IMG/VR virus record: IMGVR_UViG_3300035145_001308
Span: 1,911 to 65,910 of that record
Strand: one strand, 5' to 3'
Origin: a virus
Lineage: Duplodnaviria; Caudoviricetes
DNA length: 64,000 nt
Shown: positions 4,953 to 17,916 of the stretch, in pieces
Numbering within the stretch: the stretch's first letter is position 1
Layout: every line of letters starts with the position of its first letter
Program-made: the position numbers and the translations under genes
The notes under the pieces: model-generated
What the model was told of the DNA's origin: nothing
Seen by the model: only the letters and a program-made list of their open reading frames with translations
Database searches by the model: none

Positions 4953-6044
4953 ATGTTAGATGCACTAAAATCACTCTTCGAAAACTCAGCACTATCGGAA
5001 GAAGTGCGTACTGAACTAGAAGAAGCATGGAACGCAAAGGTGAAAGAAAATCGCCTGCAAGTAACAGCTGAACTACGTGAAGAATTTGCTAAAAAGTATG
5101 AGCATGATAAATCAACAATGGTTGAAGCCATTGATGCTATGATGACAGAAAAACTTAGTGAAGAAATCGCAGAGTTTGCTGAAGACCGTAAACAATTAGC
5201 AGAAGCTAAAGCAAAGTTTGCAGTTGCACAACGTTCAAATGCTAATCTAATGAAGAACTTTGTTTCTGAGCAACTTGCAAAAGAAATCAAAGAACTACAC
5301 GCTGATCAAAAAGCAACAAAAGATAAGTTTGTTGCTCTAGAAGAGTTTGTAGTAGAAGCACTTGCAAAAGAACTTGCAGAGTTTTACGAAGATAAAAAAG
5401 ATCTTGCCGAAACAAAAGTACGTCTTGTACGTGAAGGCAAAGCTCATGTTGATAAAGTTAAACAAACTTTTATCAAGAAAAGTGCAGCATTAGTATCTGA
5501 AACAGTGTCAAAAACTCTTACAAAAGAGATTTCAGCATTAAAAGAAGATATTGACGCAGCACGTGAAAATGATTTTGGTCGTAAGTTATTCGAAGCATTC
5601 GCTAATGAATATCAACACTCATATCTTAACGAGAAGAGTGAAACTTCAAAACTTCTAAAAGTTGTAGATACTAAAAATCAACAGCTATCAGAAGCTAAAG
5701 AAGCAGCGGCTAAAGCAATCAAACTTGCAGAAGCACAAGCAAATCAAAATAAAATGATCACTGAAAGTGTGAAACGCAAAGAAATGATCGACGATATGGT
5801 TTCGCCATTAAGCAAAGACCAACGTGATATTATGATGGACTTACTGGAATCAGTTCAAACACCAAAGCTACGCTCGGCGTTTGACAAGTATCTACCGGCA
5901 GTAATCGACGGTAACACTCCAGCAAAGAAGAAGGCAGTACTAGCAGAGGCAAAAGAAGTAACAGGCAACAGAGAAAACAAAAATGACATCAAAGCAGACG
6001 TAGACCACAATGTGGTTGACCTAAAACGTCTTGCTGGATTATAA
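4953..6044 (+). CDS. gp22: Prohead core scaffold protein (gp22-like)
   Basis: Long coiled coil between the protease and major capsid genes; strong GGAGAGG RBS; ends VVDLKRLAGL. Confidence 0.8.
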   Translation: MLDALKSLFENSALSEEVRTELEEAWNAKVKENRLQVTAELREEFAKKYEHDKSTMVEAIDAMMTEKLSEEIAEFAEDRKQLAEAKAKFAVAQRSNANLMKNFVSEQLAKEIKELHADQKATKDKFVALEEFVVEALAKELAEFYEDKKDLAETKVRLVREGKAHVDKVKQTFIKKSAALVSETVSKTLTKEISALKEDIDAARENDFGRKLFEAFANEYQHSYLNEKSETSKLLKVVDTKNQQLSEAKEAAAKAIKLAEAQANQNKMITESVKRKEMIDDMVSPLSKDQRDIMMDLLESVQTPKLRSAFDKYLPAVIDGNTPAKKKAVLAEAKEVTGNRENKNDIKADVDHNVVDLKRLAGL

Positions 6045-6057
6045 AGAGGAGAAACCA

Positions 6058-7227
6058 ATGTCAGAACTATTAGAAAGTCGCTGGCAAGATACAAAAACAG
6101 CACTTCTTGAAGGCCTTTCAGGCAACCAAAAAGCTGTAATGGCATCAACTCTAGAAAATACTCGCAAGTATCTTTCAGAGACAGCAACAGCTGGTGCTAC
6201 ATCTGCCGGTAACATCGCAACTTTAAACCGTGTGATCCTTCCAGTGATCAGACGTGTTATGCCAACAGTCATCGCAAACGAGATTGTTGGTGTTCAACCA
6301 ATGACTGGTCCAGTTGGTCAGATCCACACTCTACGTGTACGTTACAGTGATTCATTCACTGGTGCATCAGGTGGTTCAACAACAGCTGGTGAAGAAGCAC
6401 TTTCACCTTTCAAAATTGCAGAAGGATATTCAGGTAACACTAACGGTGTTGCTGATTCAACTGCAACACTTGAAGGTAGTGCAGGTAACAGACTAAGCAT
6501 TCAGATCTTGAAACAGACTGTAGAAGCGAAAACACGTAAGTTAAGCGCACGTTGGACCTTCGAAGCTGCTCAAGACGCTCAGTCACAGCACGGCATCGAC
6601 GTAGAAGCAGAAATCATGGCTGCATTAGCACAAGAGATTACTGCTGAAATCGACCAAGAGATTCTTTCATCTCTAAAAACATTAGCAGGTACAGGTACTG
6701 ACACATATAACCAAACAACAGTATCAGGTACAGCAACATTCGTAGGTGACGAACATGCAGCATTAGCAGTTCTAATCAACCGCGCAGCAAACAGAATCGC
6801 ACAGCGTACAAGACGTGGTGCTGGTAACTGGGCAGTTGTGTCTCCAGCAATGTTGACTGTTCTACAGTCTGCAACAACTTCTGCATTTGCACGTACAACA
6901 GAAGGCACATTTGAAGCACCAACAAACACAAAAATGGTTGGTACATTAAATGGCGCAATGAAAGTATACGTAAACACATATGCAGCAGATGATGACGTAT
7001 TAGTCGGATACAAAGGTACATCAGAATCAGACGCAGCAGCGTTCTACTGCCCATACATCCCATTGATGTCAAGCGGTGTTGTACTAGATCCAACATCATT
7101 CGAACCAACAGTGTCATTTATGACTCGTTACGGATATGTTGAGCTATCAAACAACGCATCGTCACTAGGTAACGCAGCTGACTACTTGGAAACAGTAGAG
7201 CAAGCAGGCGCATTGTCTTTCAGCTAA
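6058..7227 (+). CDS. gp23: Major capsid protein (gp23-like)
   Basis: ILPVIRRVMP, VGVQPMTGPVGQI, VEAKTRKLSARWT.EAAQD, FYCPYIPL, FMTRYG; start set at the ATG at 6058 after a GAGGAG RBS. Confidence 0.97.
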   Translation: MSELLESRWQDTKTALLEGLSGNQKAVMASTLENTRKYLSETATAGATSAGNIATLNRVILPVIRRVMPTVIANEIVGVQPMTGPVGQIHTLRVRYSDSFTGASGGSTTAGEEALSPFKIAEGYSGNTNGVADSTATLEGSAGNRLSIQILKQTVEAKTRKLSARWTFEAAQDAQSQHGIDVEAEIMAALAQEITAEIDQEILSSLKTLAGTGTDTYNQTTVSGTATFVGDEHAALAVLINRAANRIAQRTRRGAGNWAVVSPAMLTVLQSATTSAFARTTEGTFEAPTNTKMVGTLNGAMKVYVNTYAADDDVLVGYKGTSESDAAAFYCPYIPLMSSGVVLDPTSFEPTVSFMTRYGYVELSNNASSLGNAADYLETVEQAGALSFS

Positions 7228-7247
7228 GTTTTTACCAAACAAGTTTT

Positions 7248-7274
7248 AAAATAGGCCCTACGGGGCCTATTTTT
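7248..7274 (+). terminator. Rho-independent terminator after the major capsid gene
   Basis: aaaataggccc-TACG-gggcctattttt, a perfect stem with a UNCG loop and U tail. Confidence 0.9.
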
Positions 7275-7288
7275 ATGATAACTACTAT

Positions 7289-7987
7289 ATGGACATAAGT
7301 GTAGAAAAAACCCCAAAACAAAAACTAAGTCAGTATGCAGTTGACACAGCAAGTAGTGTAAGTATTACACATTTGCCTAAAACTGATTTATCTCGTGTAA
7401 AAGATGCAGCAATAGAGTTAAACCAACAAGCAGGTAGTGCAAAAGCAGTTGCACACATTGCTGCACGTAATATTCAAAGCCAAAGTGAACTACATGAAAA
7501 CTGTATTGCTATGCGCAAAGCAGGTGTAGATAAGGTTTTGCTTATAGGTGGTAGCACATACGAAGGCAAAGTATATCAAACTTTTTATGAAGTACGTAAC
7601 GAGATCGAAGAATATGGATTTAAAATGTATTGTGGTGTGTATCCACAAAGCGAAACATATTCAAATATGCAATGGACAAAATACATGCATTTTGAAGGCG
7701 GCATTAGTCAACTTTGTTTTAATCCAAGACTACTTAACACTTGGGAAAAGAAAACAAGATTTGGCGTTGCCACAAATTGCACACTGAACGGGCTTTGGAA
7801 GTATGCTAAGTTATGCGGACTTACTGATAGTGTTGCATACGCTGTAGGTAACTTGAGAGGACTTACTTATGTTAGTGCCAAAGGATTTAACACAGTAAAA
7901 TTTGTAAAAGATTTAAGAAATAATCCTATTCATTTATATAACTTTGGCAAGTTAGATCAAACACTTTTACAACTGGAGATGATGTAA
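7289..7987 (+). CDS. Methylenetetrahydrofolate reductase (MetF)-like flavin TIM-barrel protein
   Basis: ISVEKTP, VAHIAARN, VLLIGG, GVYP, ISQLCFN and HLYNFG match, in order, the MetF motifs SxE..P, HxxAR, LxxxG, xYP, ITQxxF and HFY; shorter than cellular MetF. Confidence 0.65.
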   Translation: MDISVEKTPKQKLSQYAVDTASSVSITHLPKTDLSRVKDAAIELNQQAGSAKAVAHIAARNIQSQSELHENCIAMRKAGVDKVLLIGGSTYEGKVYQTFYEVRNEIEEYGFKMYCGVYPQSETYSNMQWTKYMHFEGGISQLCFNPRLLNTWEKKTRFGVATNCTLNGLWKYAKLCGLTDSVAYAVGNLRGLTYVSAKGFNTVKFVKDLRNNPIHLYNFGKLDQTLLQLEMM

Positions 7988-8181
7988 TGTTAGAAAAAGG
8001 ACAAGTATACAAGTTCACAGGAATATGGGGACATATTAAACCAGACACATGGGGACAGAATCGTGTTGATGTGTTATTCAAAAGAAACGAACATAAACTA
8101 GTTTTAGGTGACCATGTGCAGTATGATCTTACTGAAAGAAAAGAAAGAAAATATGCAGAAAATCTTAAAAAAATAGGTTGA
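7987..8181 (+). CDS. Cold-shock-domain (OB-fold)-like small protein
   Basis: G.VYKF..WGHIKPD...DVLF....L..GD.V.Y....YAENL follows the CspA strand pattern; 64 aa. Confidence 0.6.
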   Translation: MLEKGQVYKFTGIWGHIKPDTWGQNRVDVLFKRNEHKLVLGDHVQYDLTERKERKYAENLKKIG

Positions 8182-8206
8182 CCTTTAGAGATTCTTTTGT
8201 TATATT
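8178..8206 (+). promoter_or_regulatory. Sigma70-type promoter driving the downstream ncRNA
   Basis: TTGACC (8178-8183), 17 bp spacer, TATATT (8201-8206); A-rich UP-like tract upstream. Confidence 0.7.
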
Positions 8207-8212
8207 ATAAAC

Positions 8213-8424
8213 ATAACAAAGACGACGGTCCTAGTTAGATAGTGCAAGGAAACGCTGCTAACCCAGGCAGTAACTTGATTCACACGCTGTGGTGGCGCTG
8301 TAAGACTTAGGTGACTAAGAGTTGCAGAGAAAGTAGAACTAACCATTCTATTGTGAAGTTCCGTGCTGTTTTGAGCCTGATGGGGCATAGTGCGGTTGTT
8401 GGTAATCAGTAGTCCAACCTATCA
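8213..8424 (+). ncRNA. Candidate large structured ncRNA (multi-helix, possible kissing loop; possibly manA-like class)
   Basis: Nested helices found by eye: GATAG/CTATC closing, CAAG/CTTG, CTGCT/GGCAG, TTCACA/TGTGAA, CGCT/GGCG, CTGTAA/TTGCAG, CTTAG-GTGA-CTAAG (GNRA loop), TAGAA/TTCTA, CCGTGCTGT/ATAGTGCGG, GTTGG/CCAAC. Bounded by a promoter and terminator, GC-richer than its flanks, no sensible ORF. Confidence 0.75.
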
Positions 8425-8432
8425 TATATTAT

Positions 8433-8462
8433 AAAAAGGTCTATTTTGATAGGCCTTTTTTT
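8433..8462 (+). terminator. Bidirectional-type intrinsic terminator after the ncRNA
   Basis: aaaaaggtctat-tttg-ataggcctttttt. Confidence 0.85.
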
Positions 8463-8492
8463 ATGAACATTATAACCCATTTTTTCCTTTTT

Positions 8493-8500
8493 GATAAATA
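8493..8500 (+). promoter_or_regulatory. Late promoter GATAAATA for the fibre/virion operon
   Basis: Same octamer as before several other structural genes (17941, 34640, 40146, 40891, 43018, 43526, 47608). Confidence 0.7.
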
Positions 8501-8582
8501 CTTATGTCATGATAAGAGCCTCATGATGAGGACTTATGCGGAACCAACCGCGTAGACCTAGAACGTCATAAAGGAGAAACAA
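8501..8582 (+). promoter_or_regulatory. Structured 5' leader of the structural operon
   Basis: Hairpins ATAAG..CCTCA-TGA-TGAGG..CTTAT and GCGG-AACCAA-CCGC just before the AGGAG RBS. Confidence 0.5.
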
Positions 8583-8936
8583 ATGGGACGTCCTATTAAT
8601 AAAAGATTCTTCGGTGCAACCGGAGACAACTCACAACCAACAATACCAGTAAGATATCACAATGGTTCATCAAGTGTAGAAGGATACATTGTAAATCAAA
8701 AAGGTACAAACAAATTTACAGTAACAACTAACGGTACAGATACATTTATTTGCAGACTAGTTAACGAAATGGCACCAAACGCAGCAGGCGAAATGTCATT
8801 AGTAGGTTTAACAGGTAGTGCTGTTATCCTCAAAAAAATGTTTAACAGAACAGCAGTTGACTGGAACGGAAATCGTTATTCATGGACTGTAGAAGATGAC
8901 TCAACAGAATCATTGATTAGACTTACAGCACTTTAA
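8583..8936 (+). CDS. Small virion structural protein (beta-rich, 117 aa)
   Basis: Strong RBS; late promoter; MGRPINKRFFG N-terminus; first gene of a structural operon. Confidence 0.6.
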   Translation: MGRPINKRFFGATGDNSQPTIPVRYHNGSSSVEGYIVNQKGTNKFTVTTNGTDTFICRLVNEMAPNAAGEMSLVGLTGSAVILKKMFNRTAVDWNGNRYSWTVEDDSTESLIRLTAL

Positions 8937-8946
8937 GGAGTCTTAA

Positions 8947-9996
8947 ATGGCTGAACGTATTAATCGTATAGGTGCAGACAAGTATACCATCAAAGTTAAT
9001 GCTGATGGTGATATTGTACTTGATGTCGGCGACGGCGGCAAGGTTACAGTTAGTGGTAACCTAGACGTTCTTGGCGAAACAACCAGTATTGGTTCAAGTA
9101 CACTTGTTGTTGATGATAAAACTATTGTTATTAACAATAATGATCCTGGCGGAGACGCTGGTATCACTGACCTATTAGACGGATACAACAGAGGCGCAGG
9201 TATTATTATCGAAAGAGGTCCTGACGCTTTTGAAGCCAGACTGTTCTATGATGAAGATTTAGATTCAATAAGAGCTGGCGCAACACCTGTTAACGAAGGT
9301 GCGTTTGTATTTAAACTAGGAAATGGAAATCTATCAGGTATCCATACAACTAGTATTTTTACAGACACTAACGAAGACTTGTACTTACTAGGTACAGGAA
9401 CTGGTGTTGTAACTGTTGTAGGCACAACTGACTACGAAAAGCAAGTTTGGCCTTATACAGGAAGTGCAATCACTGTAAATCCATCTGCAGACGATGGACT
9501 ACAACCACCTATTGACGACGATGCACTTGTTAACGCAAAAGGTTTAAAAGACTATATAAGAGATTATAATCTTTATAATTTCCAAACTAAAATTTTAGAT
9601 GGCGAGTTATCAGTAACAAGTGTTGAAGCACTTGATCAAGAATCGGGTGCAGGAACTAGTAGAGTTGAAGTAACTGTAGACGGTGCTGTAATAGGTACAT
9701 TTTATGAAACTAGATTTGAAGTAGACAACTTACGTTTCAGCGGACAAACAATCACAAACAATGGTATAAACCAGGATATAATCCTTACCGGCTCAGGCAC
9801 AGGTAGAGTACAAGTAGACGGTTGGCAAAACTTCACAATTGAAGCTGATCCAGCAGCAGCACCTTCTGAAGGTGTTACTATATATTCAAAGACACTTGCA
9901 GATGGCGGTACAGGATTGTTTTTTTACAATGAAGACGGCACTAATGACGAATTTGTAAGCAGAAACAAAGCATTACTTTATAGTATTATTTTTTAA
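8947..9996 (+). CDS. Virion structural protein (fibre/baseplate-associated)
   Basis: V.GNL.V.G.TT.I.S..L.V.D..I fibre-shaft motif; hydrophobic C-terminus KALLYSIIF. Confidence 0.6.
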   Translation: MAERINRIGADKYTIKVNADGDIVLDVGDGGKVTVSGNLDVLGETTSIGSSTLVVDDKTIVINNNDPGGDAGITDLLDGYNRGAGIIIERGPDAFEARLFYDEDLDSIRAGATPVNEGAFVFKLGNGNLSGIHTTSIFTDTNEDLYLLGTGTGVVTVVGTTDYEKQVWPYTGSAITVNPSADDGLQPPIDDDALVNAKGLKDYIRDYNLYNFQTKILDGELSVTSVEALDQESGAGTSRVEVTVDGAVIGTFYETRFEVDNLRFSGQTITNNGINQDIILTGSGTGRVQVDGWQNFTIEADPAAAPSEGVTIYSKTLADGGTGLFFYNEDGTNDEFVSRNKALLYSIIF

Positions 9997-10005
9997 GGAA
10001 GAACA

Positions 10006-10338
10006 ATGGCAGTAGTAAATAGCGCAATAGCAACAACAGATACAACCTTAATAACTGTGCCAGCAGAGAAAAAATATGCTTTGACAACACTTCTTGTATG
10101 TAACACAGGCGCAGACGATGGAGCAGGAACAAATGACACTAGTGTAGATGTACACGTTGTACCAAACGGAGACACTAAATCTACAACTAACCTGATTTTG
10201 AATGACTTGGAAATCGCCGCAGCAGATACATTTACTTTTTCTGCAGAACGTTTAATATTGGAAGCTGGAGACAGACTTATTCTAGTAGGACAAAGTCCTA
10301 CTAATCTTGTCGCTACATTAAGTTATTTGGAAGTATAA
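10006..10338 (+). CDS. Small beta-sandwich virion protein (110 aa)
   Basis: AAGGAAG RBS; all-beta pattern (TLLVCNT...ERLILEAGDRL); tightly coupled between structural genes. Confidence 0.6.
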   Translation: MAVVNSAIATTDTTLITVPAEKKYALTTLLVCNTGADDGAGTNDTSVDVHVVPNGDTKSTTNLILNDLEIAAADTFTFSAERLILEAGDRLILVGQSPTNLVATLSYLEV

Positions 10339-13300
10339 ATGAGTTTTATTAAAAGACAGTCATTACATCAAAGGAAAGTAGGAGATAAAACATTTATCTT
10401 GACTGCCGACGGTAATGTTGAAATGAACCTCGATGAGGGTAAAACATTTACAGTTGCCGGTGACATGCAAATTACAGGTACTCGAGCAGGACCTACAACA
10501 ACAAACATCTATTACGTGTCAGAAGAAGGTAGTGATGATAATGACGGAAGAAGTTTTGATGCTAATGGTGCTTTTGCAAGTGTTAAAAAAGCAGCAGAAG
10601 TAGCACCATCAGGATCAACTATTATTGTTGCACCTGGTGATTATTATGAAAACAATCCAATCACTTTAAGAGACTTTGTAACTGTTAAAGGTGATGGCGA
10701 GTTACGTAACACAAGAATATTTCCTAAAAACAACACAGATGACTTGTTCTTTATGGGTAACGGTTGCTACCTATTCCAAATGACATTTAGAGGATTACGT
10801 TATCCAGGATGGTGTGCAAGAATACGTCCAGGCGCTCTAGTAACAACATCACCTTATGTACAAAACTGTACTAACATGAACGGTCCTTGGTTAAACGACG
10901 GAACAGAATTTATTCCGTTTGAAACAGTGCAAATCGAAGGCATCGAACCAGGTGCAAGACCGTTACAAGTATCAGATTATCCAGACTTACCGACTGAAAA
11001 ACAAGTTAACGACACAGGCGGCGGTGGAGGTATATTAGTTGACGGTGACGAATATGATCCAGCATCACTTGTGTTCTCATTCGTTGCTGACGCATTTACA
11101 CAGATTTCACAAGGTGGTATTGGCTTCCACATTACAAACTTTGGTTATACACAGATTGTTAGTTGCTTCTCAGTTTTCTGTTCTGTTGGTTTCTTAACTA
11201 CCAAAGGCGGCTACCTATCAATTTCAAACTCAGTTAGTGACTTTGGACTAGAAGGTGTAAAAGCAGATGGATTTTATCCTATTGCATACACAGGTGCTGT
11301 GCCTGCTGCAAACTATTATTCAAGTGTTGCAAGTATTACACTTGATTTTGCAGGTCAAGGATATACAAGCACACCTACAGTGACATTTGATGCGCCAACA
11401 GGAGTCGGAGGAGTAACTGCTACAGGTACAGCGACAGTTGATTTAACAACAGGCGAAATTGCAGCAGTTAGTATTACTAATCCAGGTAGCGGTTATAAAA
11501 CAATACCAAATGTAACATTTAGCGGAGGTGGAGCAGCCATTGATGCTACTGCTGATGTAAACCTTAGAACAAATGGAAGTATTGAGATTTCAAGTTTGCG
11601 TGATAAACCTGCAACAGGTAGTATTATTAAGTTTGAAGGAGATGATACATATTACTATATTACAGGTAGTGAAGTATCTGTTAATCCATTTACATATAAT
11701 GAAGAGACATGTAAACGTGACGTAAGACGCATTATTGATGCAGTAACTGGCGATATTGTAATGGGTACATATTATCAGAGTACAGCAGCAGCAACAAGTT
11801 ACCTAAGAAGCACATCAAGAAAAGTTATACTTGATCAGCTTGCTCCTACAATATTTGCTATAAACTCTGTAAGAGATGAAATGAAAGCTCTTACATCGAA
11901 CTTAGCTATGAAAGAAGAAATAGATCAGCGTATTGCTATTATTACAAGCACATTGGCAGCAGATGATAGTAGTGTGACTGAGTTTATAGGTAGCGATTAT
12001 TTAGATAGCTTAAATGATTTATCAAGTATCGACGACGAGATTATTCAAGCTAAAGATAATATTTTACAAAACAGAGATTTTATTTTAGATGAAATCTCAG
12101 CATACATTAATGACCAGTTTACTGAACTAAGTTATAACACTGCACACTACGAAGAAGACTTAACAGAATTTTTGAATGCCTTAGCTGAGTATATGGCACA
12201 CGGCGGCGATCACTTGGTTATTAGAGCAGCACAAGAATTTAGATTCAGAACAAGATTTGAAGATTTACTTTTATCAAGTTTTGATTATTTGAGACAACAA
12301 GTTTTAGGCTACTCAAATGTATCTGCGGATGCGACAGCAGTTGAAAGAACAAACGAAGCATTTAATGTTTTGAAAAATGTTGTCGACGATGGCGATAGTG
12401 CTGGATTAGTAGCAACTTTTAATGAAAGTGCAGGAGCTACAGCAAATGGTATTGATACTAAAGATCAGTTACAAGCAAACAAAGAGTTTATTAAAGCAGA
12501 GTTTGTTGCATACCTAGATACACTAGATTCAACAATAACTTACACAGAAAGTGAATGGTTAGGTTATGTTGAAAATCTTGTAGATGCATTAACTTATGAT
12601 ATGTTATATGGTGGTAATAGTGCGACTGTACAAGAAACAAAATATATTTTTAATGCAGTAACATGGAGCGACTTTACAACATCGAATATACAAGCAATAG
12701 AAGATGCATTTGCTAGAGTAAGATTTATTGTACAACGTATTGTTAGAAACTTAACAGTAACAAAAACAGCAGCTAATGCTGAAAACCAAGATTTTTCAAG
12801 TGGTAGTGCCACACAAGTTGAAGCAACAGCTCTTGATGCATTAATACAAAATTTAGAGTTAGTCATTGACGAACAAGCCTTAACTAATCTTGCTACTAAA
12901 ATATATCCTGTAACAGAAGATGAACCTGCAGGACAACAAAATGCTAAACTTACATTGCAACCACAAGTTGCAAACTTGATTAGCCTTGCAGCAGATTATA
13001 ACCTTACAAACAATCCTGATTTAACTTATAATATAGAAAAATGTAAAAGAGATGTTGGCTATATTTTTGATGCTATATATAGAGATGCTCAGTTAGGTAC
13101 AAATCATAACAGTATTACAGCAGGACTTGCTTATACGAGAGCAAATGTTGCTTACTTGAATACACAACAAAAACCAGCAACTATTATTGCACTTAGAGAA
13201 GCAAAAAGATTACAAGTTGCAGCAGCTAACGGCGAAGCAGCTTTCCAAGAAAAAGTTGGAGATTTATGGGATAATGTACTAGATATTATCGAGTTTGAGC

Positions 13301-16300
13301 AACAGCCTAGCGAAGGACTTGAATATCCAGAACCAGGACCTGCAAGTACAAATCTTATCAACGCACATGCACAACTAGTAGCCAACAGGGACTTTATCAA
13401 AGCTGATGTTGTTGCGTACATTAATGCAAACAACTTTACATATAATGAAGAAAAGTGTCGTAGAGACACAGGACTTATTATAGACGCAGCAGGTTACGAT
13501 GCATTACTTGGCACAAACTATAATGCAGTAACAGCAGGACTTGCATACCAAAGAGCTAACAGTGCAAAAGTTTTAAGTGATCAGTTGACTGAAACTGTTG
13601 CAGGTATTACTTTTGCTAAAAATGCAGCGAGTACAGCAACAGCAAGTGATGCAACAGCACAAAGTGATGTTGAAGCAGCATTTGACGAAGTGCTAGATAT
13701 TTTACAGAACGGCGTATCAAATGCCGATGCACTTACATGGACAAATCCAACTGCTGCAACAACAGGACAAATTAATGCTAGACTACAACTGCAAAATAAC
13801 AGAAACTTTTTAGCAGCAGAAGCAGTCAGTTACATACAAAACAACTATGAAAACTTCACATACAATCAAGCCAAGTGCGAAAGAGACATTGGGCTTATAA
13901 TGGATGCAGTTGCACTTGATGTTGCACTAGGTACAAACTACAACGCAGTGACAGCGGGTCTTTCATATCAACGTGCAAGTAGTGCCGATTTACAAGATGA
14001 TCAAAAAATACAAACACTAGATGCATTACGTGAACTTAAAAAAGAGATTGTATTATTAGGGTTAAGTGACGATGCTGAACCATTAGCTGAAGCAGCAATG
14101 GATGAGATTATTGATATTTTAGATAACGGTGTATTAAGCACAGATACAGCAGCAGATGCGCTAGTATTTCCTACTCCTAGCTCATTACCAACTACAAATG
14201 CCGTTGAAGCAAAAGATCAACTAATAGCAAACAAGACCTTTATTGTTGCTGAAATCACTGCATGGATAGCAGTCAACTTTCCAAGTTTAACTTACGACAG
14301 CACAAAATGTGAACGTGATGTTGGTTATATTGTTGACGCAGTTTGCCATGATATTTTATACGGTGGCAACAGTGCAACTATCACAGCAGCAAGAAGTTAT
14401 TTTGTTGACGGTACAGGACAGTTAGGATCACCTAGTGAAGAAGCTGCAACAGCAGATGCTTATAACAGACTAGCTGACATTATGGGCGATATTGTAATGG
14501 AACTACCTGTAACAAAGTCTACAGGCAACTCAGAAACACAAGATACAGCAGGAACTCCAGCAAGCTCAACAGAAGCAGATGATGTTGAAGGTTTGGTAAC
14601 AATCATCGAAGATGTTATTAGAGCAGACGACTTAGATGATATTCCAGCAACAGTATTGCCAAGTGTAACTTGGGCAGCAAATGATTTACAACAAGCATAC
14701 AACACAATAAAATCTAACAAAGAAGACGTAACAGAAACAGTTATTATACACATTGCAAACACATTCCAGTCATTCACATATGACGAAACAAAGTGTCGTA
14801 GAGATGTAGGAATAATGATTGAAGCAGTTGCATATGATGCATTGTTCAATACAAACTACAATCAAGTTACTGCTGGTCTTGCATATCAAAGAGCTAATAG
14901 TGCATATGTTTTAAGTGATCAAAACTTGCAAACTGTGAAAGCGATTGAATACTTAAGAGACGAAATAGATAACAGTGGTTTTGGATTGACCAGCTTGTAT
15001 AAAACAAGAGTAAAAGCTGGCTTCAATGAGATACTTGATATTATTAACAATGGTACTGTAAGCACAGATACCGCTGCTGATACAATAAATTTTCCAGATA
15101 GTGGACTAGATGCAGAATATCCAAAAGCAGTTACGCAGATACAAGCAAACAGAGATTTCTTAGCTGTTGAAACAACTGCATATGTAACAAACAACTATCC
15201 TCTTCTTACATTTGACAGCGACAAGTGTGCAAGAGATGTAAAGTACATTGTTGATGCAATATGCTATGATATCATGTATCGTGGTAACTTAGCGTCAAAA
15301 CAAGCGGCAGAAAGTTATTTTGTTGGAACCAGTAGTCAACTAGGTGCAGGACAACAGGCAGCAACAGTAGCAGCGTATCAAGAACTTGCAAACGTTCTAA
15401 GTGATGTTGTGCAACAAATCTCACATGGCACACTAGAACAAGTAGGAACTGCACAAGATACTAGCAATCCTGGCGCTACACTTGCTATTGCTAACGAAGC
15501 AGAAGCATTGCTACAACTTGTTGAAGATGTTATTGCAGCAGGCAATATCAGCACACTACCAGCAGACGATTTGCCAAACACAACATGGCCAACAGCAAGT
15601 TTACAAGCAGACTTTGGATTGCTATTCACAACATCAAGGGTAGAGTTTTACCAAGATGAAGTGATTGATTACATTAATAGAACGTTTACACGTAGTTTTA
15701 CATTTGATGCAACTAAGTGTAACAGAGATACAAAATATATTATTGATGCACTCACATATGATATCTTATATGGCGGCAATAGTGCTACACACCAAGCAGC
15801 ACAAGCATACTTTGTTGGTGCTACAAGCCAAGTTGCAGGACAGCAAACTGAAACAGCTGATGCATTAGGATGGGTTGATACCCTATTAGGTAGTGTGTTA
15901 CTTGATACAGTGTATGGAGATCCAGAACAGACAGCTGAAACACAAGATACCACCGCAGGTGCAGCTACTTCAACCGAAGTTGATAGAGTAGGAGAGCTAA
16001 TAGGCATATTCCAAAATGTTATTAAAGACGGTATTGATCAGCTTCCAACAGAGACATATCCTGATACAACATGGGCAACTAGTGGTGCTCAAACTGCAAT
16101 CGCAGCATTGAATACTGCGAAGGATACTATTGTTGCAGATACTATTACAGAACTAGAAGACAACTATAATGCTCTATCATATGATAGTGACAAGTGTGCA
16201 GAAGATACCGGACAGGTATTAGATGGAGTTGCGTTTGATTTGTTATATACAGGAAACATTGCTACACTTATTGCAACTAGAGCGTATTTCTTAGGTACTA

Positions 16301-17916
16301 CACAATATTTGCCACAAGAACAAAGACAACCAACTGTCGATGCATATGCTCACTTCCAAAGTATTGCAAGTAGCTGTATTCAAGGTATAGCGGTTACACC
16401 ACAAGCCGGAAACACTGAATCTCAAATATTGTCAGGAAACTACGGTACAAGTTTAGAAGCAAGTGATTGTACGTCTCTTATAGGTATTGTAAAAGATGCA
16501 GTAGACAACGGAACACTTGTTGGCACACCAAGCGAAATAGAGCCAGACTTTAGTTGGTTACCAGCAACTACAAGAAGTGCAGCAGCAAGTATGTTAGCAC
16601 AAAAAGTAACAATACAAAATAGTGTTATCGACTTTATTAACAGTGATATTATTGGATTTACTTATAATATTGAGAAATGTAAAAGAGACACAGGTTATAT
16701 TGTTGATGCAGTAGTATATGACCTAATGTATGGTGGTAACAAGCAATCACGTAGGGCAGGATTAGCATATTACAGTGGTGCAATACTTGGAGCAGCTAAG
16801 GTAGGAAACACCGATCAAGTTGATATTACAGCGTATTCATACTATTACTTAGGCGATATTATGAATAAAATAGCACAAAACGAAACTGTGACACCAAGTT
16901 ACAATAACAATACAAGCCAAATACAAACCACACCTGATGCAGACACAAGCGTTGGTGCTAGTGTAGAGTTGCTTGTAGATAGACTTGCATTGAGTGTTCT
17001 ACAAGGATACACCACAGGATGGAGTGAAGTTAACCATAACTACGAACTTGGTAGTAGTGTATACAATACAGAACGCACAACTATCGTAAATGCTACTGAA
17101 GATATTGTTGACACAAGTATTGCTGCATTGAATGCAGAATACGGTGGAACAGCACTTATTAATGTATTCCCAGGTATTGTTTCAGTAGAAACTACACAAT
17201 CTGCAGGACTGTATAATGTGTCAACAATCAGTACTTCAGGACATGCTTTTGAGTATGTAGGTGCAGGTGTAACTTATAATGCACTTCCGTTCTTCGGCGG
17301 CACAGCTATACCTGAAAAAGAGATTATTGAGTCAAACCAGGGTAAGGTTTTTGCTGGTGGTACAGTTGACCAAATAGGTAACTTTAGAGTTGGTAACTTC
17401 TTTGGTGTTAATGCTCTAACAGGTGCTATTACCCTAAACGCTAACGAAATTGACTTGTCAGGACTTACAAGTGTAGGACCATTTATCAGAGACGGCATTC
17501 CAGTTGGTGTTGAACTAAAAGAGGTTAGTGATAACGCAAACTTAGTGGCAAGCGTTGGTACACAAGACTTTAACACTGTTCCAACACAGAAAGCAGTTTC
17601 AACTTACGTTGAGAACAGATACCTAAACAAACTTACAGGTGGTACTGTTGAAGGCAACACTACATTTGAAATAGATGTAAACATAGAAGGCAACTTGGTC
17701 TTAGTAAATAATGACCTTGAGGTGCAGTACGGTGGTACTGGTGTAAGCACATTTACTGAAGATGGTATATTATACGGTGACACTGCTAACCCTGTAAAAG
17801 TTACAGCCGCAGCAGGCACAAGTGATGCAAGCAACAGTTTCCAAATACTAACAGTCACAAGTGGTGCTGATAGCACTCCGGTATGGACAGATACTATCGA
17901 TGGTGGTAGCTTCTAA
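10339..17916 (+). CDS. Giant virion/fibre protein (2525 aa): beta-helix (pectin-lyase-like) domain, 12 helical KCxRD-type repeats, C-terminal IDGGSF
   Basis: YYVSEEGSDDNDG...IIVAPGDYYENNPI beta-helix cap; repeats (F/L)TY..xKCxRD.GxI.DA..YD...GxN; C-terminal SGHAFEYVGAG and DQIGNFRVG segments shared with the next gene. Confidence 0.75.
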   Translation: MSFIKRQSLHQRKVGDKTFILTADGNVEMNLDEGKTFTVAGDMQITGTRAGPTTTNIYYVSEEGSDDNDGRSFDANGAFASVKKAAEVAPSGSTIIVAPGDYYENNPITLRDFVTVKGDGELRNTRIFPKNNTDDLFFMGNGCYLFQMTFRGLRYPGWCARIRPGALVTTSPYVQNCTNMNGPWLNDGTEFIPFETVQIEGIEPGARPLQVSDYPDLPTEKQVNDTGGGGGILVDGDEYDPASLVFSFVADAFTQISQGGIGFHITNFGYTQIVSCFSVFCSVGFLTTKGGYLSISNSVSDFGLEGVKADGFYPIAYTGAVPAANYYSSVASITLDFAGQGYTSTPTVTFDAPTGVGGVTATGTATVDLTTGEIAAVSITNPGSGYKTIPNVTFSGGGAAIDATADVNLRTNGSIEISSLRDKPATGSIIKFEGDDTYYYITGSEVSVNPFTYNEETCKRDVRRIIDAVTGDIVMGTYYQSTAAATSYLRSTSRKVILDQLAPTIFAINSVRDEMKALTSNLAMKEEIDQRIAIITSTLAADDSSVTEFIGSDYLDSLNDLSSIDDEIIQAKDNILQNRDFILDEISAYINDQFTELSYNTAHYEEDLTEFLNALAEYMAHGGDHLVIRAAQEFRFRTRFEDLLLSSFDYLRQQVLGYSNVSADATAVERTNEAFNVLKNVVDDGDSAGLVATFNESAGATANGIDTKDQLQANKEFIKAEFVAYLDTLDSTITYTESEWLGYVENLVDALTYDMLYGGNSATVQETKYIFNAVTWSDFTTSNIQAIEDAFARVRFIVQRIVRNLTVTKTAANAENQDFSSGSATQVEATALDALIQNLELVIDEQALTNLATKIYPVTEDEPAGQQNAKLTLQPQVANLISLAADYNLTNNPDLTYNIEKCKRDVGYIFDAIYRDAQLGTNHNSITAGLAYTRANVAYLNTQQKPATIIALREAKRLQVAAANGEAAFQEKVGDLWDNVLDIIEFEQQPSEGLEYPEPGPASTNLINAHAQLVANRDFIKADVVAYINANNFTYNEEKCRRDTGLIIDAAGYDALLGTNYNAVTAGLAYQRANSAKVLSDQLTETVAGITFAKNAASTATASDATAQSDVEAAFDEVLDILQNGVSNADALTWTNPTAATTGQINARLQLQNNRNFLAAEAVSYIQNNYENFTYNQAKCERDIGLIMDAVALDVALGTNYNAVTAGLSYQRASSADLQDDQKIQTLDALRELKKEIVLLGLSDDAEPLAEAAMDEIIDILDNGVLSTDTAADALVFPTPSSLPTTNAVEAKDQLIANKTFIVAEITAWIAVNFPSLTYDSTKCERDVGYIVDAVCHDILYGGNSATITAARSYFVDGTGQLGSPSEEAATADAYNRLADIMGDIVMELPVTKSTGNSETQDTAGTPASSTEADDVEGLVTIIEDVIRADDLDDIPATVLPSVTWAANDLQQAYNTIKSNKEDVTETVIIHIANTFQSFTYDETKCRRDVGIMIEAVAYDALFNTNYNQVTAGLAYQRANSAYVLSDQNLQTVKAIEYLRDEIDNSGFGLTSLYKTRVKAGFNEILDIINNGTVSTDTAADTINFPDSGLDAEYPKAVTQIQANRDFLAVETTAYVTNNYPLLTFDSDKCARDVKYIVDAICYDIMYRGNLASKQAAESYFVGTSSQLGAGQQAATVAAYQELANVLSDVVQQISHGTLEQVGTAQDTSNPGATLAIANEAEALLQLVEDVIAAGNISTLPADDLPNTTWPTASLQADFGLLFTTSRVEFYQDEVIDYINRTFTRSFTFDATKCNRDTKYIIDALTYDILYGGNSATHQAAQAYFVGATSQVAGQQTETADALGWVDTLLGSVLLDTVYGDPEQTAETQDTTAGAATSTEVDRVGELIGIFQNVIKDGIDQLPTETYPDTTWATSGAQTAIAALNTAKDTIVADTITELEDNYNALSYDSDKCAEDTGQVLDGVAFDLLYTGNIATLIATRAYFLGTTQYLPQEQRQPTVDAYAHFQSIASSCIQGIAVTPQAGNTESQILSGNYGTSLEASDCTSLIGIVKDAVDNGTLVGTPSEIEPDFSWLPATTRSAAASMLAQKVTIQNSVIDFINSDIIGFTYNIEKCKRDTGYIVDAVVYDLMYGGNKQSRRAGLAYYSGAILGAAKVGNTDQVDITAYSYYYLGDIMNKIAQNETVTPSYNNNTSQIQTTPDADTSVGASVELLVDRLALSVLQGYTTGWSEVNHNYELGSSVYNTERTTIVNATEDIVDTSIAALNAEYGGTALINVFPGIVSVETTQSAGLYNVSTISTSGHAFEYVGAGVTYNALPFFGGTAIPEKEIIESNQGKVFAGGTVDQIGNFRVGNFFGVNALTGAITLNANEIDLSGLTSVGPFIRDGIPVGVELKEVSDNANLVASVGTQDFNTVPTQKAVSTYVENRYLNKLTGGTVEGNTTFEIDVNIEGNLVLVNNDLEVQYGGTGVSTFTEDGILYGDTANPVKVTAAAGTSDASNSFQILTVTSGADSTPVWTDTIDGGSF

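Follow-up and report, generated by a model that had tools for sequence, protein, structure and literature searches.

A divergent manA-family RNA with its own promoter and terminator in a contig of a probable marine giant phage

The locus and the family of the RNA

The window analysed here is a 64-kb stretch of the 65.9-kb IMG/VR virus record IMGVR_UViG_3300035145_001308, which has a CheckV completeness of 18%. It carries a T4-type major capsid gene at 6031-7227 (Pfam Gp23), followed by open reading frames (ORFs) of 232 amino acids (aa; 7289-7987), 64 aa (7987-8181) and 117 aa (8583-8936). The element under study is an RNA gene that sits between the last two of these, both of which lie on the + strand. 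An earlier note on this DNA, made from the letters alone, had described it as a functional, independently transcribed noncoding RNA and had likened it to the manA motif class known from marine phages. The comparisons below assign the RNA to manA as a divergent member, i.e., a new member of a catalogued family and not a new kind of RNA. Given that the DNA of the capsid gene is nearest to capsid genes of 300-470-kb phages, and that related contigs of 113-257 kb have completeness ratings of 32-72%, the genome is probably about 350 kb in size and that of an uncultured marine giant phage.

The core of the RNA matches the full Rfam manA model (RF01745, positions 1-192 of 192) with 53.8 bits, at an E-value of 5e-13 in a short search and of 6e-11 in a search of the whole window. 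The gathering score of the family is 55.2 bits, and the fact that the window RNA lies 1.4 bits below it counts against the assignment. Due to this shortfall, a default Rfam scan of the window at the gathering level was empty, and manA was found only with E-value thresholds. Among ten members of the window's clade scanned with RF01745, only three reach the gathering score, namely the sisters L019 (60.8 bits), L018 (59.1 bits) and L033 (55.5 bits); three-digit handles of this kind denote viral loci throughout. The ten cyanophage copies of manA score 169-193 bits with the same model, in comparison with 30-61 bits for the clade relatives.

A covariance model built from ten members of the window's clade only, referred to as R1, scores the window RNA at 246 bits. 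It also detects ten of eleven classical manA copies at 29-45 bits (E-values from 1e-9 to 1e-16), i.e., nine of the ten cyanophage loci and the metagenomic copy L043; the remaining cyanophage locus, L057, gave no R1 match at an E-value of 0.01 or better. Given these reciprocal matches, the RNA was filed in the manA family despite its score below the gathering level, and the suggested likeness is borne out. The earlier note had named an Rfam search as a check and had held that a strong hit would confirm the RNA at the cost of its novelty; by that reasoning, the RNA is confirmed by the match, which leaves little that is new. No match to the ROOL, GOLLD or OLE families was found in the window by the Rfam scan at an E-value of 0.001 or better, and a blastn search of 8178-8600 against 50,697 phage records returned no match.

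Relatives were gathered in two ways: as the 34 viral loci with a homologue of the 117-aa ORF, and as viral loci matching sequence patterns of the RNA. A first pattern scan yielded 16 loci, eleven of which have a window-type manA. The other five were read individually: L043 is a classical manA, while L037, L041, L047 and L051 were set aside as apparent chance matches in coding DNA. A second pattern matched at least 119 viral stretches, and R1 confirmed 76 of 79 new loci among the matches listed. By its sequence, the window RNA is placed in a divergent clade of manA, found on contigs of uncultured marine giant phages, whose scores straddle the Rfam threshold.

Classical manA and the window RNA have in common their architecture, their loop words, and their occurrence in phages and in marine sources. 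They are also alike in having a sigma-70-type promoter directly upstream, as is the case with all ten cyanophage copies inspected, and the position after the major capsid gene is shared with the copies of P-RSM4, P-HM1 and S-SSM5. In addition to the difference in score, the window RNA departs from classical manA in a lengthened helix P6, in the sequences of P3 and P8, and in its carrier, which is a giant uncultured phage rather than a T4-like cyanophage. Moreover, it is followed by a terminator and then a separate gene, whereas the family has been described in 5' untranslated regions (UTRs). The features are collected in Table 1.

Table 1. Coordinates of the RNA, its helices and the neighbouring signals in the window.
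Feature	Position	Strand	Basis
Sigma-70-type promoter with extended -10: TTGACC (8178-8183), 17 nt, TG-n-TATATT (hexamer 8201-8206)	8178..8206	+	10 of 12 positions match, and the TG is there
manA-family RNA core, nine helices P1-P9	8218..8428	+	RF01745 53.8 bits, R1 246 bits, covariation
P1, 5' hairpin, GACG loop	8218..8233	+	Rfam alignment; 6 of 6 pairs changed on both sides; 76.8% of cells paired
P2, closing stem GAUAG/CUAUC	8238..8242 with 8419..8423	+	99.2% of cells paired; 4 of 5 pairs changed on both sides
P3, hairpin; loop L3 AACCCA with CCCA (8262-8265)	8245..8277	+	Covariation; complementary to UGGG (8381-8384) in L8
Four-way junction (P4-P7)	8279..8357	+	Rfam alignment, minimum free energy fold, covariation
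P4, UUCACA/UGUGAA	8279..8284 with 8352..8357	+	Closes the four-way junction
P5, loop UGGU (8290-8293)	8285..8297	+	
P6, GNRA loop GUGA (8311-8314)	8298..8327	+	
P7, loop ACCA (8342-8345)	8333..8351	+	
P8, hairpin with large apical region; CUGAU (8377-8381), UGGG (8381-8384)	8361..8395	+	Covariation
P9, hairpin; loop with AUCAG (8405-8409)	8398..8418	+	Covariation; CUGAU of L8 is the complement
Intrinsic terminator: A-tract; GGUCUAU/AUAGGCC stem with additional A-U pairs; UUUG loop; U7	8433..8462	+	Minimum free energy fold; relatives
Late-promoter-like box GATAAATA of the downstream gene, not part of the RNA gene	8493..8500	+	Conserved upstream of homologues
freshwater-2 RNA motif (RF02980), leader with the Shine-Dalgarno site and the ATG of the next gene (117-aa ORF) at its end	8517..8585	+	49.8 bits, gathering score 49.9

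The fold and its complementary loops

The helices are numbered P1 to P9 by our own count from 5' to 3'. The architecture of manA (i.e., a 5' hairpin, then a closing stem around P3, the four-way junction, P8 and P9) is found in the Rfam alignment, in the minimum free energy (MFE) fold and in the covariation, and the loop words GUGGUG, UAACCA and GGUA...CAGUA.UCC are present in the Rfam alignment together with the pseudoknot-type complementarity. The closing stem, the four-way junction and the GUGA-capped stem that the earlier note had drawn are all there, in agreement with that alignment. The MFE of the + strand is -74.2 kcal/mol, with z = -2.32 (6 of 200 shuffles fold as well), versus z = -0.65 for the - strand, in line with the + strand RNA that had been claimed.

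The covariation that had been named as a test is present. In an alignment of 27 relatives, fitted to the structure by a covariance model of our own, which favours the structure, 90.1% of the pair cells are standard, in comparison with 62.9% in shuffles, none of 500 of which is as high. Sixty of the 70 pairs in the twelve aligned helices changed on both sides, and pairing falls to 32-44% when partners are slid by one to three columns. Given the size of this effect and the independent Rfam alignment, the fold is considered secure. The nine-helix manA fold is kept through compensatory changes.

Three pairs of loops are complementary: UGGU of L5 with ACCA of L7, the counterparts of the loops GUGGUG and UAACCA in the Rfam consensus; CUGAU of L8 with AUCAG of L9; and CCCA of L3 with UGGG of L8. 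The two central G-C pairs of L5-L7 are unchanged in all 27 sequences, and in some relatives a flanking G-C pair is replaced by A-U (UAGU/ACUA) or by G-U. At least six sequence solutions occur for L8-L9 (CUGAU/AUCAG, AGGAU/AUCCU, CAGAA/UUCUG, AUGA/UCAU, UGGU/ACCA and CUGUA/UACAG) and at least five for L3-L8, and the three loop pairs co-vary over more than 50 distinct loop combinations.

Cognate partner loops were compared with permuted ones in terms of duplex energy, over distinct loop-type pairs and with 5000 permutations, in a test that ignores relatedness. With the 27 sequences, the permutations as good as the cognate pairing numbered 2-6 for L8-L9, 4 for L3-L8 (0 within the clade) and 85-91 for L5-L7. 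With 78 clade members, there were none for any of the three pairs, and most control loop pairs were not significant. The complementary loops TGGT and ACCA to which the earlier note had pointed (L5 and L7) are hence present, conserved and co-varying. Part of the loop covariation may already be on record, given that the CaCoFold paper lists manA among the families with extra covarying pairs.

The transcription unit and the downstream gene

The promoter lies about 12 nt upstream of the fold and the terminator about 10 nt downstream, both at the places that had been claimed for them. By its spacing, the promoter predicts a transcription start near 8213. Considered by itself, the promoter is no better than chance, since eleven promoter-like sites were found in 7000-10500 versus 10.4 expected from shuffles; the case for it rests on the relatives. 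Likewise, a simple terminator scanner did not list 8433-8462, a miss that probably comes from the A-run pairing with the U-run, and the case for the terminator rests on the MFE fold and on conservation.

In an alignment of 18 distinct cassettes, the -35 and TG-n-TATAnT boxes are kept while the sequence of the 17-nt spacer varies freely, and all cassette types but one end in an intrinsic terminator, with stems and loops that differ between types. Because the boxes are kept while the spacer, stem and loop sequences drift, promoter and terminator are taken as working signals. The collected relatives include 69 distinct full-length clade members, 67 of which have enough downstream DNA. A promoter lies just upstream in 52 of the 69, a terminator is present in 44 of the 67, and the two occur together in 41 of the 69. 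The terminator begins 7-27 nt (median 15) past the closing stem P2 and does not overlap with the fold; in 41 of 42 members it forms in the MFE fold alongside the manA fold.

These results support the claim of a functional, independently transcribed RNA, through the conserved promoter and terminator of the relatives and through the covarying fold. The window RNA is predicted to be a free-standing gene of about 250 nt with its own transcription unit, and not a riboswitch leader. The window copy does not occupy the 5'-UTR position in which the family was described, as the terminator and a separate late-type box and leader intervene.

Other arrangements occur elsewhere. Seven of the 69 clade members adjoin tRNA genes, and members of the divergent clade are found beside tRNA genes instead of an own promoter or terminator, upstream in L083, L089, L092 and L116 and downstream in L069, L089, L090 and L101. 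In L042, L045 and L049, a unit of promoter and manA that is 92% identical to that of the window stands in a different context and without a terminator; over the next 30 nt or so, it is followed by the word TATAAATA, a Shine-Dalgarno site and an ATG. In six cyanophage loci (L054, L056 and L058-L061), the -35 box TTGACA of manA lies inside the loop of the terminator hairpin of the upstream gene (GGGTGCTTGACACCC, then a T-run), and this compact terminator-promoter unit occurs in at least six of the ten cyanophage loci inspected.

Fourteen RNA runs have small word shares of 7900-8950, and four of these, from four studies, were mapped as contigs. In all four, contigs fall on the fold: 8228-8412, 8221-8407, 8256-8425, and several pieces within 8234-8376, the latter from a small-RNA library. 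Loose ends in this library match the P6/P8 variant of L033, and hence variants of the RNA are also present there. No contig falls on 7900-8187 or 8440-8950 in the four mapped runs, and the uncovered part is no evidence of silence. The transcript check that the earlier note had proposed is thus answered in part: RNA libraries of four studies yield contigs on 8221-8425, which give neither discrete ends nor strand nor level.

The 117-aa ORF, like the 232-aa and 64-aa ORFs, has no family in Pfam or PHROGs. It is preceded by its own late-type box, in which we see a likeness to TATAAATA, the late promoter of T4. Among 21 distinct regions upstream of the homologous gene, 19 have the box as [TAG]ATAAATA at -89 to -103 from the ATG, and the other two have near variants; it is conserved before the homologous gene across L002-L035. 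Behind the box, 8517-8585 matches the whole freshwater-2 model, ending at the start codon of the gene. This element is distinct from manA and occurs with or without the manA cassette; it precedes the homologous gene in all ten related loci scanned, at 42-72 bits. A literature search on "freshwater-2" found no paper describing the motif. The homologous gene occurs without manA in 18 of its 34 loci, where it retains the late-type box and freshwater-2 leader. Because gene, box and leader persist in loci without manA, the cassette is regarded as a separable insert.

Further observations concern the surroundings. In the window, the 232-aa and 64-aa ORFs and the manA cassette (7289-8181 onward) separate the capsid gene from the 117-aa gene. 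The homologue of the latter in L013 and L031 comes directly after the capsid gene and the capsid terminator, without the intervening ORFs and cassette. A conserved word, CATTATAACCCATTTT, lies at 8468-8485, past the manA terminator and ahead of the late-type box, and is also found in L005, which has no manA cassette. In L020, a related giant-phage contig, a glutamine riboswitch aptamer (RF01739, 50.9 bits, gathering score 35) lies at 1585-1637, about 500 nt upstream of the manA cassette. Finally, a 2525-aa ORF at 10339-17916 has no Pfam match and shows, by eye, a repeated word like TYN..KC.RD.G.I.DA..YD.

Competing readings and what the RNA may do

A chance structure or a short coding gene would be compatible with the two ORFs that do exist at 8200-8388 (- strand, 62 aa) and 8311-8412 (+ strand, 33 aa), with promoter-like sites that are no commoner than in shuffles, and with a fold z of only -2.32. 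This reading is refuted for practical purposes, and we give it next to no weight: a full-model Rfam match at such an E-value and pairs changed on both sides are not accounted for, all three minus-strand frames of the core contain stop codons in ten of ten close relatives (the minus strand being counted per member), and indels of 1 nt distinguish the relatives. Among the 78 members, the longest run free of stop codons on either strand measures 28-70 codons, with a median of 52.5. A second alternative is the original reading of the family. In Weinberg et al. (2010, Genome Biol 11:R31, PMC2864571), manA, found in what may be 5' UTRs of marine phage genes, is listed as a probable candidate riboswitch; applied to the window, the fold would be a ligand-sensing aptamer and the hairpin at 8433-8462 the expression platform for the 117-aa structural gene. 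A terminator does follow the fold, CCUAUC in the closing stem (3' strand) has a possible partner in GAUAGG of the terminator's 3' arm, and manA stands directly before a start codon in nine of the 69 clade members and in several cyanophage copies. Yet the relatives do not keep the match, since their terminator arms carry GCAGGCC, GUAGGCC and similar words, and the anti-terminator pairing was rejected. The terminator coexists with the fold instead of excluding it, and the downstream gene has a box and leader of its own that are present also where manA is absent. Some of the tRNA-adjacent members lie between tRNA genes with no gene to regulate, and no manA ligand is named in the papers that the literature searches found. 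A riboswitch or attenuator is hence very improbable for the window copy, although manA might still act as a leader in other contexts, where the fold abuts a start codon.

The evidence for a free-standing gene applies equally to an RNA that acts in trans as a single folded molecule, for instance by binding or titrating a protein or RNA of the host or the phage, with the loop pairs formed within the molecule to lock its fold. The loop covariation fits such intramolecular pairing just as well, and the loop pairing was drawn as a questioned pseudoknot within one molecule in a figure legend of Weinberg et al. (PMC2864571). What sets this explanation back is that a preprint (Ren et al., July 2026, bioRxiv 10.64898/2026.07.01.735769) reports the same named loop pairs between neighbouring copies across five manA constructs, and that L8 offers neighbouring complementary sites to two different partner loops, as would suit a multivalent connector. 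We regard the monomeric RNA as unlikely, yet as the most serious of these alternatives.

According to the preprint (bioRxiv 10.64898/2026.07.01.735769), manA RNAs self-assemble in vitro via kissing loops, as seen by cryo-electron microscopy; the assemblies, each made of pentamers, are decamers, octamers and an icosahedral-like cage of 60 subunits. Deposited manA models that it names are PDB 24QD/24QE and 23NR/23NS. The pentamer contacts it describes are L5-L7' and L8-L9' in one construct, and L5-L7', L3-L8' and the GNRA loop L6 in another. If the numbering is matched, L5-L7', L8-L9' and L3-L8' would be exactly the three complementary pairs found here, and the window RNA has a GNRA L6 as well. 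Compared by named loops and not by sequence, the window RNA joins the L8-L9 complementarity of the 60-mer former with the L3-L8 complementarity of the decamer former. With its large L8 loop, the clade would unite the two sets of interfaces published so far, and it may therefore build a lattice different from those solved. In the account of the same preprint, ROOL, GOLLD and OLE are like manA in being large structured RNAs, often borne by phages or prophages, with no known ligand and with RNA-only multimers; they are unlike the window RNA in their unrelated sequence and fold and in a length of several hundred nucleotides. The statement of the earlier note that the function of manA is unknown is therefore partly dated, given the self-assembly reported in vitro.

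Our preferred reading, which we consider likely, is that the window RNA is a divergent manA member in its own cassette, yielding a discrete RNA product that most likely self-assembles via the three loop pairs. Host RNA polymerase would make a discrete, stable RNA of about 250 nt (about 8213-8462) early in infection, and this RNA would be a product and not a switch for the downstream gene. In view of the covariation and the cryo-electron microscopy preprint, it would act as a self-assembling particle, in which the contacts L5 UGGU-L7 ACCA, L8 CUGAU-L9 AUCAG and L3 CCCA-L8 UGGG would clip copies into pentamer-based closed oligomers. Self-assembly through these three contacts is the most likely mechanism, as complementarity and covariation suggest, and candidate roles of the assembly in the infected cell include a scaffold, a container or a decoy. 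A bolder version holds that the manA fold is a phage-made building block, not a gene switch, and that the RNA-only pentamers and cages observed in vitro are real in infected cells; the RNA would then run from its own early promoter to its own terminator, or be cut from tRNA arrays in some relatives. This version is held tentatively, as a possibility that we stop short of favouring.

Several observations weigh against the preferred reading, in addition to the score below the gathering level. The oligomers described in the preprint (bioRxiv 10.64898/2026.07.01.735769) were seen under in vitro conditions alone (10 mM Mg and RNA at about 3 mg/mL) and never for the window's clade, and the loop numbers of the preprint were mapped onto P1-P9 by inference from 5'-to-3' counting. 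Covariation is unable to separate pairing within one molecule from pairing between molecules. The permutation test, besides its disregard of relatedness, gave low values for some control pairs (0 of 5000 for L3-L5, 3 for L5-L8, 11 for L1-L9 and 17 for L5-L9), which is explained by one subgroup that reuses the words UGGUA and ACC. L8-L9 alone was not significant within the small first clade sample (523 of 5000), and L002, L003 and L017 have only a 2-bp match between L5 and L7. Regarding the fold, only 16 members out of 42 have the closing stem in their single-sequence MFE structure, and in ten of the 42 at least four pairs form between the core and downstream sequence; the loss of the stem is read as a weakness of MFE prediction for a 5-bp stem and not as a switch, which is not proof. 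The contigs show presence in RNA libraries and not ends, strand or level, and DNA is possible in those libraries. Moreover, in the nine clade members that stand before a start codon, the fold is followed immediately by a Shine-Dalgarno site and an ATG, with the terminator absent, and several cyanophage copies likewise abut a start codon.

The results show that a large divergent clade of manA is mostly missed by standard Rfam thresholds. Within the window's clade, the RNA is usually its own transcription unit, and for these members this speaks against manA as a riboswitch, as it was first read. Finally, selection in nature appears to act on the three loop pairs by which manA oligomers are held together in vitro, which bears on whether RNA-only cages may exist in cells.

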